Virus record (IMG/VR): IMGVR_UViG_2651869782_000036
Coordinates: 1-12,726 of that record
DNA length: 12,726 nucleotides
Origin: a virus
Lineage: Duplodnaviria; Heunggongvirae; Uroviricota; Caudoviricetes
Reading direction: 5' to 3' (one strand)
Shown: positions 2,488-12,726 of the stretch, piece by piece
Position numbering within the stretch: the first letter of the stretch is position 1
How the letters are laid out: each line of letters begins with the position of its first letter
Notes under the pieces: model-generated
Database searches by the model: none
Seen by the model: the letters and a program-made list of their open reading frames with translations, nothing else
What the model was told of the DNA's origin: nothing
Program-made: the position numbers and the translations under genes

Positions 2488-2948
2488 GCCCTTACGATGT
2501 AATTAAACGCAATGTTATGGGGGCGTGTTTCAGATGCTGTGCGAACTGAGCGAGAGGCGTCGAATGTCCATACAGAAGCACCATATCCTTCAATGATCTC
2601 AGTTGGTTGTAAGCCTACTGATAATATAGAGTCAGTTTGACTAAATGGTCCTGAATTAAGCGCATCTTTAAAAAGCTGAGTACGCCCAAAAGTGCCAACT
2701 ATATTCTGAATAGCGTCAGACTGTGCAGACAGTAGGTTGCGCCCATTATCAACGCCCCGTCCGTCATCCCAGCCGCGAATAAATTCGCCCCGTAAATCCG
2801 GTAATTTATTGGTGGGGTAGGCCTTTGCCAGATTGGGGTACATTTCAGAAGAAAATGCTGCGCCGTTACATTTCAGCCACCCCGTTGGCAGCGTGGCTGA
2901 GGGCCATGGAACGGGCACGCCAACGGGCAACGCAGAGCCTTCCCCCAA
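2481..2948 (-). CDS. Tail fibre C-terminal variable cassette 5 (inverted, silent; the ORF-track extension to 3005 is probably fortuitous read-through into the invertase promoter region)
   Basis: Conserved head (GEGSALPVGVPVPWPSATLPTGWLKCNGAAF…) and tail (SETRPHNIAFNYIVRAA); the centre resembles cassette 1 (…SAQSDAIQNI…). Confidence 0.75.
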   Translation of the reverse strand: MGEGSALPVGVPVPWPSATLPTGWLKCNGAAFSSEMYPNLAKAYPTNKLPDLRGEFIRGWDDGRGVDNGRNLLSAQSDAIQNIVGTFGRTQLFKDALNSGPFSQTDSILSVGLQPTEIIEGYGASVWTFDASRSVRTASETRPHNIAFNYIVRAA

Positions 2949-2965
2949 ACCAACGTTTTCGTTTT
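2940..2965. other. Candidate Gin-family crossover site adjacent to the invertase gene (TTCCCCCAAACC AA CGTTTTCGTTTT)
   Basis: Same right half-site and core as the other three sites; the left arm differs because it is not preceded by a cassette 3' tail. Lies ~55 bp upstream of the invertase start, as for cix/gix next to cin/gin. Confidence 0.55.
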
Positions 2966-3019
2966 TATCCCTACCTATACCAACTCTGTATTTTTCACGA
3001 AACAAAGAGGATGTTTTTT

Positions 3020-3619
3020 ATGCAAATTGGCTATATTCGTGTGTCAACAAATGACCAGAACACGGATTTACAACGCAATGCACTGAACTGCGCAGGATGT
3101 GAACTGATTTTTGAAGATAAAATCAGCGGAACGAAATCAGCCAGACCGGGATTGAAAAAACTGCTCAGAACGCTATCAGAAGGAGATACGCTGGTTGTCT
3201 GGAAGCTGGACAGACTGGGCAGAAGTATGAAACACCTGATCACGCTTATTGAGGAATTGCGGGAAAAAGGTGTTAATTTCCGTAGTCTGACGGACAGCAT
3301 TGACACATCAACACCCATGGGGCGTTTCTTTTTTCACGTCATGGGGGCTTTAGCCGAAATGGAACGTGAATTAATTGTAGAGCGTACACTGGCCGGGCTG
3401 GCAGCAGCACGCGCACAAGGACGCATTGGCGGACGTCGCCCGAAGTTGACAAAAGAACAACACGAGCAAATAGCGAGGCTGATTAAAAACGGTCATGACA
3501 GGAAACAACTGGCGATCATTTACGACATCGGCATATCGACGATTTATCGTTATCACCCTGCAGGCGATATACAGGCTGAAGAAACAACCAGGCAGACTCA
3601 GGAAAATAAAAACCGCTAA
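3020..3619 (+). CDS. Site-specific DNA invertase, serine recombinase (Gin/Hin/Cin/Pin family)
   Basis: Start MQIGYIRVSTNDQNTDLQRNAL… is the hallmark invertase N-terminus with the catalytic Ser in GYIRVST; C-terminal HTH (GRRPKLTKEQHEQIARLIKNG…ISTIYRY). RBS AAAGAGG 9 nt upstream of ATG 3020. The ORF-track start at 2825 is rejected. Confidence 0.93.
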   Translation: MQIGYIRVSTNDQNTDLQRNALNCAGCELIFEDKISGTKSARPGLKKLLRTLSEGDTLVVWKLDRLGRSMKHLITLIEELREKGVNFRSLTDSIDTSTPMGRFFFHVMGALAEMERELIVERTLAGLAAARAQGRIGGRRPKLTKEQHEQIARLIKNGHDRKQLAIIYDIGISTIYRYHPAGDIQAEETTRQTQENKNR

Positions 3620-10540: not shown

Positions 10541-10801
10541 ATGTTCCGTTGTCCGCTTTGTGGCGCATCTGCCCGTATCCGCACCAGTCGTTCGGAAAAT
10601 GATTCAAACACCGTACGGAAAAAATATTACCAGTGTAACAACCTGGAATGCGGCATAAGTTTCTCAACACTGGAAGCTTTCCATAAATTCACATCGAAAC
10701 ACGCCCCCGGCGTTCACTCTTCAGAAGGTATCCCGTGGCATGAGTTGCCAGCTTCACACAGGGGAAACAATCAGATGAGTTTGCCTTTATCTCAGAATTA
10801 A
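10541..10801 (+). CDS. ogr: Ogr/Delta-family zinc-finger late transcription activator
   Basis: 86 aa; MFRCPLCG…(22 aa)…CNNLEC gives the C-X2-C-X22-C-X4-C spacing typical of Ogr; N-terminus resembles P2 Ogr (MFHCPLC…). SD TAAGGGAGG 5 nt upstream. Confidence 0.8.
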   Translation: MFRCPLCGASARIRTSRSENDSNTVRKKYYQCNNLECGISFSTLEAFHKFTSKHAPGVHSSEGIPWHELPASHRGNNQMSLPLSQN

Positions 10802-10810
10802 CAGGCAGAA

Positions 10811-10839
10811 TTGCCGGAGTAACAAAAAAGCGATAGATT
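10811..10839 (+). promoter_or_regulatory. Putative sigma70 promoter of the hok-like transcript (-35 TTGCCG, 17-bp spacer, -10 TAGATT)
   Basis: Hexamers are weak matches to consensus (4/6 each), with 17-bp spacing, placed so that a transcript would begin near 10846, at the 5' element that is complementary to the 3' end of the transcript. Sequence-only guess. Confidence 0.3.
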
Positions 10840-10992
10840 ACGCGCGGGTGCCTTTCGGCTGATGGTCGGAGGGAATACCCGAAGGCCGGATGTGGAAAGG
10901 CCCCGGAAAACATCTCTGTTTAACCGAGGCCCTAACATATCTACCTTAAGCAAGTGATAGGTTAGCGCCTCTCCAACAAAGGAGCAAGCGCT

Positions 10993-11133
10993 ATGTCGCA
11001 AAAATCGCTTACGGCCATCACGTTCTGCGTGACGGTAATCCTCATAATCTGGATGCTGCACGGTTCGCTGTGTGAAATACGGATGAGCTTCTGGGGAGCG
11101 GAGTTTGCGGCGTTCTTACAGTGTAAGCAGTAA
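10993..11133 (+). CDS. Hok/Gef-family type I toxin-like small membrane protein (46 aa)
   Basis: MSQKSLTAITFCVTVILIIWMLHGSLCEIRMSFWGAEFAAFLQCKQ: N-terminal hydrophobic helix followed by SLCEIR and E-x-AAF-x-x-C/Y, as in Hok (…[23 protein letters not shown]…). SD AAGGAG 8 nt upstream of the ATG. Below the 60-aa cutoff of the ORF track. Confidence 0.65.
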   Translation: MSQKSLTAITFCVTVILIIWMLHGSLCEIRMSFWGAEFAAFLQCKQ

Positions 11134-11220
11134 GGAAACCGCGACGGGGGAGCAATCCCCCGTCAATCGGTTGCCAGGGTAAGGTCGATAAGGCACCCTA
11201 TCTCACAGACATGAACAACA

Positions 11221-11253
11221 AACCCGCAGCGTAAAAACTGCGGGTTTTCTTTT
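11221..11253 (+). terminator. Rho-independent terminator (downstream of the hok-like gene)
   Basis: Stem CCCGCAG / CTGCGGG with an 8-nt loop, followed by TTTTCTTTTT. Confidence 0.65.
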
Positions 11254-11284
11254 TGGTTCCCTCACTCATGAGGACACCAAAAAC

Positions 11285-11317
11285 AAAGCCCATAGCATAG
11301 AATGCTGTGGGCTTTTT
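11285..11317. terminator. Hairpin with flanking T-runs on both strands (bidirectional terminator candidate)
   Basis: AAAGCCCATAGCA (loop tagaa) TGCTGTGGGCTTT then TTTTT on +; on the minus strand the same hairpin is followed by TTTGTTTTTGG. Confidence 0.5.
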
Positions 11318-11392
11318 GCATTCAAAGATGGACGTTATATGGACACTTAAAAATAAAATCCATTTATTTTCAAATAATTAAACTTCTACTTA

Positions 11393-11433: not shown

Positions 11434-12726
<1,293 letters not shown>

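Follow-up and report, generated by a model that had tools for sequence, protein, structure and literature searches.

A short open reading frame (ORF) at the extreme end of a P2-type prophage raises two questions: whether it encodes a genuine toxin of the Hok/Gef family and, if so, how such a toxin could be produced and held in check where mok, the leader frame that accompanies hok in plasmid R1, is absent. The window analysed here, a stretch of 12,726 nucleotides from the virus record IMGVR_UViG_2651869782_000036, carries this frame at positions 10993–11133 of the plus strand. A preliminary description of the same DNA had taken it for an unannotated Hok/Gef-like toxin gene, acting as a moron or addiction module and lacking an intact mok.

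The Hok/Gef-family gene and its place in the prophage

The frame starts with ATG and specifies 46 amino acids (MSQKSLTAITFCVTVILIIWMLHGSLCEIRMSFWGAEFAAFLQCKQ; first residues MSQKSL), exactly as had been described. The claimed strong Shine–Dalgarno (SD) sequence is present as AAGGAG at 10979–10984, 8 nt upstream of the ATG, and the layout of the peptide likewise agrees with the earlier reading of a hydrophobic N-terminus followed by two diagnostic motifs: residues 6–23 are devoid of charge and largely hydrophobic, and SLCEIR and EFAAFLQC come after them. A Hok/Gef profile match over the region from SLCEIR to AAF had been named as the decisive result, and such a match was obtained. The Pfam profile HOK_GEF (PF01848) aligns through its positions 5–42 of 42 with residues 7–44 of the peptide at 30.1 bits (E = 3.7e-7), above the gathering score of 22 bits. 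Moreover, PHROG 251 (‘MokW-like host killing’, moron category) matches the full length of the peptide with 82.8 bits (E = 2.5e-23), and every one of the 68 peptide homologs found is named Hok/Gef. Among the NCBIfam models, the top match is HokA (E = 6e-9) and the Hok family model comes next, both with scores far under their strict cut-offs. Seven residues are kept in >80% of Hok peptides (M1, C16, T18, L30, C31, E32 and E41 in the logo of 10.1101/2025.08.07.668861), and all seven are found at the aligned positions of the window Hok (M1, C12, T14, L26, C27, E28 and E37). Furthermore, the median dN/dS over nine homologous hok copies from E. coli, an Stx phage, Salmonella and Klebsiella is 0.27; the peptide is therefore under purifying selection and its ORF is not a chance one. 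Judged from its sequence, the ORF at 10993–11133 is a genuine gene of the Hok/Gef family, encoding a predicted membrane toxin. Shortened Hok variants of 25–29 aa also occur in databases.

The last third of the ORF (11098–11129, GCGGAGTTTGCGGCGTTCTTACAGTGTAA) is near-invariant in nucleotides across genera, third codon positions included, which suggests a constraint at the RNA level. In the RNAalifold consensus, and only there, the start region of hok (10993–11008) pairs with part of this invariant block (11098–11113). This helix was kept off the list of parts because it does not appear in the single-sequence minimum free energy (MFE) fold and offers no variation in which covariation could be seen.

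The closest named paralog of the window Hok is HokA of E. coli K-12 (b4455), with 43% identity over 47 residues; in K-12, hokA is disrupted by IS150, and mokA and sokA are annotated as pseudogenes. The window gene was not accepted as a hokA ortholog, since the peptide scores 35.8 bits with the HokA equivalog model NF007290, whose cut-off is 89. Hok of plasmid R1 has 52 aa compared with the 46 aa of the window Hok, and the two are 39% identical over 31 residues. The window locus also resembles hokW/sokW of the Stx2 prophage Sp5, another prophage-borne hok/sok and the group after which PHROG 251 is named. hokW/sokW is an experimentally shown type I toxin–antitoxin system with its toxin located in the inner membrane (PMC8621323). 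The window locus is nevertheless not the published hokW/sokW, because HokW has 51 aa and starts with MKQQKAM (primer YO-357, PMC8621323), whereas the window peptide has 46 aa and starts with MSQKSL. Stx phages encode a 46-aa Hok as well, and this is a paralog distinct from the 51-aa HokW. Its gene is present in many Stx2 phages at ~82% DNA identity to the window locus, the DNA similarity spanning 10825–11198; the peptide of Stx phage Lyz12581Vzw (L003, 1670–1810; also in many Stx2a phages) is 76% identical to that of the window.

The preliminary description called the frame unannotated, which is correct for its own ORF track but not for public data. RefSeq WP_000078920.1 (‘Hok/Gef family protein’) is identical to the window peptide and is found in the layout ogr–hok–serS. 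The peptide of phage P88 gp52 (YP_009113095.1) is likewise 100% identical, and the cassette is present in other P88-like phages too. In addition, the exact window peptide is sequence 1628 in the supplementary alignment of Hok cluster 72 (Escalera-Maurer et al., bioRxiv 10.1101/2025.08.07.668861), so that neither this cluster entry nor the RefSeq protein nor P88 gp52 differs from the window Hok at the protein level. In the same survey, the constructs cloned and assayed include 72_1621, a variant with one residue changed, and 72_1589, the form from Stx phages; 42 of the 45 were toxic, and neither of these two is among the three named as non-toxic (10.1101/2025.08.07.668861). By the text of the preprint, 72_1621 is thus toxic, and toxicity is predicted for the window peptide, which differs from it by one residue. 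The survey treats cluster 72 without analysis of mok, Sok or mRNA structure (10.1101/2025.08.07.668861). Among 5426 complete E. coli genomes, the transcript unit (10846–11200) occurs in 1548 (28%), in up to 7 copies per genome, and Hok/Gef annotation accompanies it in all gene-covering rows among the matches listed; the arrangement ogr–hok–serS, at a query coverage of at least 80%, occurs in 279. Being annotated and catalogued already, and widespread in E. coli, the locus is in this respect ordinary rather than new.

The diversity of loci used below was drawn mainly from a search for contigs encoding the peptide. A scan of genome contigs yielded no more than 7 loci, and for three of these the assembly names suggest contamination. 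Indeed, hok genes of 100%, 100% and 74% identity lie on contigs labelled Planococcaceae MAG, Vagococcus sp. and Xanthomonas pisi (L014, L015 and L018), and these hits likely represent enterobacterial DNA contaminating the assemblies.

Upstream of hok lies ogr (10541–10801), which encodes an Ogr/Delta zinc-finger regulator (Pfam Ogr_Delta, 57.8 bits), and farther upstream are genes for a P2-type gpD, tail sheath, tail tube and tape-measure protein. Downstream lies serS (11434–12726, minus strand). Similarity to phage P88 stops at ~11265, just beyond the cassette's terminator, and from ~11393 onwards the sequence resembles the K-12 chromosome (serS–dmsA spacer); hok is therefore located between ogr and the chromosomal junction, where the earlier reading had put it. 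From these flanking sequences, hok occupies the extreme ogr-side end of a P88-like prophage (P2-type; Peduoviridae, Xuanwuvirus) that adjoins serS. The order ogr–hok–junction is also seen in Salmonella P2-like prophages at other integration sites, which fits a moron travelling with the P2-like phage lineage. Consistent with the suggested moron at the extreme prophage end, the cassette has its own terminator, conserved promoter-like boxes (with promoter activity predicted) and a location at the end of the phage genome. Among deposited phages, near-full DNA matches come from nine records that represent six phages only (P88, Chuche, P884B11, 500465-2, Shae_phiSM and PhiR44_2).

The ~125 bp between the P88 end and the serS terminator (11266–11392) match neither K-12 nor any deposited phage. 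They are present in 298 of the 5426 E. coli genomes, which is roughly the number with this prophage at serS, and may be the att-region arm of this prophage type or the remnant of another element. A terminator-like hairpin, AAAGCCCATAGCA-TAGA-ATGCTGTGGGCTTTTT, can be made out by eye within this stretch at ~11285–11317. In two Salmonella loci, the sRNA gene STnc540 follows the hok cassette at the prophage end (L006, 3295–3492; L019, 2809–2995). It is recognized there with Rfam scores of 172–186 bits, beside ihfA/pheT, and the P2-like prophage therefore adjoins a small-RNA gene at these sites.

Architecture of the predicted hok mRNA and its putative antisense RNA

A candidate hok promoter was located at 10811–10839 of the plus strand, with a –35 box TTGCCG (10811–10816), a 17-nt spacer and a –10 box TAGATT (10834–10839). 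Related loci share the –10 box (TAGATT or TAGAAT) as well as its spacing from GGGTGCC. In the window, this box ends six nt before GGGUGCC at 10846, which, by analogy with R1, would be the start of a full-length hok mRNA of ~410 nt (10846–11256, plus strand). The predicted mRNA extends to an intrinsic terminator found by a terminator scan at 11220–11256, where a stem (11220–11247) is followed by a T run. The hok promoter boxes match the consensus at 8 of 12 positions, and a sigma-70 scan with a threshold of 9/12 reported neither this promoter nor that of the antisense RNA described below; the promoter calls therefore derive from conservation and homology to R1 only. The Rfam model RF01794 (hok leader/sok) matches 10846–11003 over its full length with 43.9 bits (E = 3.3e-8). 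This is below the gathering score of 59, as are the scores of all members of the Hok cluster (38–57 bits). In an R1-type plasmid used as a control, RF01794 covers the hok strand from +1 to the hok ATG with 88.9 bits; the model therefore describes the hok leader.

The MFE fold of 10846–11262 has an energy of –172.6 kcal/mol (z = –7.2 versus shuffled sequences) and closes the 5′ and 3′ ends of the RNA together. For comparison, an alignment of ten loci was made that runs from the predicted start as far as the terminator, and a consensus was computed with RNAalifold. Two of the helices that emerge are long-range. In both the MFE and the consensus fold, a tac-like box at the 5′ end (GGGUGCCUUUCG, 10846–10857) pairs with 11186–11198, an fbi-like box (CGA-U-AAGGCACCC) complementary to the 5′ end. 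The tac/fbi duplex has an energy of –25.7 kcal/mol, and its 12 pairs are 97% paired in the 10 loci, 3 of them being altered on both sides. In the second long-range helix (helix 3), found by RNAalifold, the leader segment 10943–10958, which is the predicted target of the Sok tail, pairs with a 3′ arm at 11166–11180 (87.9% paired; 5 pairs altered on both sides). Within the leader, an ucb or anti-SD-like box (GGAAAGGCCCC, 10894–10904) has the GAGG region as its partner in the consensus fold (helix 2) and, alternatively, tac. The hok SD itself is hidden in the MFE folds by a hairpin at 10964–10992 (helix 4), in which the anti-SD CUCC (10971–10974) faces AAGGAG; its outer stem is 98% paired, with one-sided changes only. 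Beyond the hok stop codon, a GC-rich stem-loop at 11142–11165 (helix 5) is 96.7% paired with 5 pairs altered on both sides, and the terminator stem (helix 6) has 4 such pairs. Helix 5 occupies the position of the last stem-loop of the truncated R1 hok mRNA (R1 numbering of PMC9841398), and by this analogy it is likely the 3′ end of a processed, active mRNA.

Collectively, 93% of the alignment cells in the six helices are paired, compared with 30–50% when the partners are slid, and 19 pairs are altered on both sides, compared with at most 7 in the slid controls; none of 500 shuffles reaches the observed values. As one and the same alignment yielded the helices and served for counting them, this covariation support is good but not independent, and the compensatory changes represent few independent events, essentially the split between the E. 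coli group and the Salmonella group.

The 5′ box has more than one potential partner. The tac/ucb duplex, in which tac pairs with 10895–10904, has an energy of –21.8 kcal/mol, with 91.6% of its cells paired versus 29–65% when slid. Alignment columns 30 and 31, within tac, co-vary with both ucb and fbi, although the support is modest, as it comes from one clade split. A third partner is the segment immediately downstream (10864–10880), and the three tac duplexes are similar in energy. In the single-sequence fold of the trimmed RNA, tac/ucb is not the MFE pairing, and a local 5′ hairpin forms instead. The pairing pattern of tac is one of mutually exclusive partners, as known from R1 with its metastable hairpin, tac/fbi and tac/ucb (PMC9841398).

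On the opposite strand, a candidate Sok promoter was identified at 10959–10987 (–35 TTGCTC from 10987 to 10982, 17 nt, –10 TAACCT from 10964 to 10959). The same arrangement of a –35 box, 17 nt and a –10 box recurs in 11 of 11 cluster loci at the position of R1 Sok, with weak boxes that match 6–7 of 12 consensus positions; the R1-type reference has TTGCGC-17-TATCCT at the equivalent position. The predicted Sok-like RNA, ~57 nt long (10893–10951, minus strand), would consist of a variable 5′ tail, a conserved hairpin (reverse complement of 10899–10932) and then UUUCC, and its fold has z = –3.9. These features make a Sok-like antisense RNA probable. The window locus parallels hok/sok (parB) of plasmid R1 part by part and in order: promoter, tac, ucb, GAGG, a candidate Sok promoter on the opposite strand (17-nt spacing), then the SD of hok, hok itself, the 3′ stem-loop, fbi and hairpin. 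The pairing of the 5′ and 3′ ends and the alternative pairing of tac are also shared with R1.

Variation of this architecture was observed in Salmonella. One P2-like prophage carries three tandem hok cassettes right after ogr, with a period of 498 bp (L011, 2005–2145, 2503–2643 and 3001–3141; also L012 and L013). The tandem cassettes are 79–87% identical overall and only 52–70% identical in the predicted target of the Sok 5′ tail, which would fit a divergence of antisense specificity between the copies. Another Salmonella copy (L008, ~2850–3300; also L009 and L010) lies beside tail-fibre genes and fieF/pfkA, and its similarity to the other loci starts only at the GAAGGCC box. Since promoter and tac are absent from it and fbi is kept, this copy is probably 5′-truncated.

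The missing mok

Besides its location in a prophage rather than on a plasmid, the window locus differs from R1 in having no mok. A mok frame was sought in all three frames upstream of hok. They are closed at –46, –38/–35 and –30 from the hok ATG by the stops TAA 10947, TGA 10955, TAG 10958 and TAG 10963 (10947–10965, plus strand), and no start-like codon follows. What is left is a relic of the mok initiation region (10926–10939, plus strand), consisting of a conserved GAGG (10926–10929) and an AUA (10937–10939) aligned to the R1 mok AUG. None of the examined cluster members has a start codon at this position, and no leader ORF is conserved among them. The lack of an intact overlapping mok, first pointed out for this stretch of DNA, therefore extends to the whole examined cluster, and the accompanying suggestion that regulation may differ from that of plasmid hok/sok is borne out by the absence of mok and the AUA in place of its start codon.

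Several candidate substitutes were considered and rejected. A 31-codon leader ORF (10862–10957) has its AUG 17 nt from the predicted 5′ end and no SD, and it is missing in Salmonella and Klebsiella. An AUG at –103 opens a 79-codon overlapping ORF in E. albertii; the corresponding ORF has 19 codons in the window and is missing in Salmonella. Finally, the AUA at 10937 is unsuitable as a non-canonical mok start, since this codon is CAU, UUU, CUU or CGA in other members and the frame meets a UGA six codons on.

In R1, Hok synthesis requires translation of mok up to the hok SD, and stops in mok or mutations of its start codon abolish Hok (PMC9841398). Because R1 Hok needs mok and the window locus has none, its expression cannot follow the R1 scheme exactly and might be low or nil. 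By analogy with R1, the mok-less branch must either initiate translation directly at hok or be poorly expressed. A search of the accessible literature gave no account of hok loci without mok, which older subscription papers might contain.

Proposed mechanism and biological role

We regard it as very probable that the locus is a type I toxin–antitoxin module of the hok/sok type, forming a self-contained cassette on the ogr side, at the end of the P88-like prophage by serS. On the model of R1, a weak constitutive promoter would give rise to a stable, tightly folded hok mRNA of ~410 nt. The 5′ end of this mRNA (tac, 10846–10857) would be clamped to fbi (11186–11198), the second long-range helix would mask the antisense target and the local hairpin would bury the hok SD; with these three arrangements in place, the full-length RNA would escape both translation and binding by antisense RNA. 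Slow trimming of the 3′ end back to the stem-loop at 11142–11165 would free the 5′ end, which could then re-pair with the anti-SD box (10894–10904) and open the leader. At this stage, the short and unstable Sok-like RNA (from ~10951 to 10893 on the opposite strand) would inactivate the mRNA by binding to its leader. If the supply of Sok stopped, Hok would be made, enter the inner membrane by its N-terminal helix and kill or arrest the cell. As mok is absent, Sok presumably works through cleavage directed by the duplex, or else hinders refolding or the access of ribosomes, and does not block a leader ORF, although this is a conjecture.

What such a switch does for its carrier can be read in several ways, and the candidate roles, namely, lysogen addiction, help with lysis and release, and defence, are beyond what sequence can decide between. 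It is possible, if somewhat unlikely, that the same parts help the phage, in that Sok would be lost on induction and Hok would damage the membrane, advancing or enhancing lysis and release. In the hokW/sokW system, the one prophage-borne hok/sok examined by experiment, mitomycin C abolished sokW RNA, HokW accumulation was RecA-dependent and phage yield was halved without the locus (PMC8621323). The presence of the close copy in Stx2 phages and the proximity of the window locus to ogr, a late-gene activator, point in the same direction. However, hokW is a different paralog, from which the result may not transfer, and no sequence feature ties the window locus to induction; moreover, P2-type phages are classically not regarded as SOS-inducible.

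An unlikely role for the same parts is defence by abortive infection, whereby a lytic phage would halt host transcription, Sok would decay and Hok would kill the cell before progeny are formed. The ends of prophages are typical sites for defence cargo. As cited in PMC8621323, R1 hok/sok on a high-copy plasmid lowered the plating of T4 by 42% and shrank its plaques by ~85% in size. Furthermore, hok genes are over-represented in prophages (23% observed versus 5% expected; 10.1101/2025.08.07.668861). By contrast, none of the PADLOC models recognizes the peptide, and the same survey reports that hok is not enriched near defence systems (10.1101/2025.08.07.668861).

We consider it improbable that the locus is a silent, decaying hok relic, in which Hok is untranslated and the cassette hitch-hikes on the prophage. 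Decay would account for the absence of mok and the closure of all upstream frames; indeed, in R1, lesions of this kind in mok abolish Hok synthesis (PMC9841398). Several chromosomal hok loci of K-12, hokA with its IS150 insertion and pseudogene partners among them, are inactivated in a similar manner, and the shortened variants in databases could be viewed in the same light. Yet the ORF is intact and has a dN/dS of ~0.27 over the E. coli, Salmonella and Klebsiella copies, and conservation extends to the promoter boxes, to tac/fbi and the anti-SD and to the antisense promoter, with compensatory changes. In addition, the unit is retained in 28% of E. coli genomes as well as in free phage genomes, and the whole cluster lacks mok, suggesting a stable mok-independent design rather than recent decay. 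Finally, a chance open frame in an intergenic region with a superficial likeness to Hok, for which one could cite the mere 46 codons and the NCBIfam scores far under the equivalog cut-offs, is refuted by the Pfam and PHROG profile hits, the 68 Hok/Gef-named homologs, the purifying selection and the conserved hok-mRNA architecture around the ORF, and its probability is negligible.

As a discovery, the locus is modest: the gene has a RefSeq annotation and a place in a named family of phage proteins, is present in more than a quarter of complete E. coli genomes and is included in a recent survey of Hok. For annotation, the cassette is of value as a mark of the ogr-side end of P88-like prophages, and the locus could be used to study the function of a type I toxin in a P2-type prophage. 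What is of some, rather mild, interest to specialists is only that mok is lacking where the R1-type switch is otherwise complete. We tentatively propose that a naturally mok-less Hok cluster keeps the whole R1-style switch, with translation of Hok and its repression by Sok proceeding without the leader peptide, a reading that we hold to be plausible though somewhat short of probable. If it is true, translation could, for example, begin directly at hok, from its strong SD, after opening of the local hairpin, and Sok could act via cleavage of the duplex, or by blocking either refolding or a ribosome standby site at the GAGG hairpin. As a natural case of the R1 switch without mok, the locus could thus be used to probe whether leader-peptide coupling is obligatory in hok/sok systems, and the leader ORF deemed essential in R1 would, on the same condition, be dispensable in a natural branch of the family.
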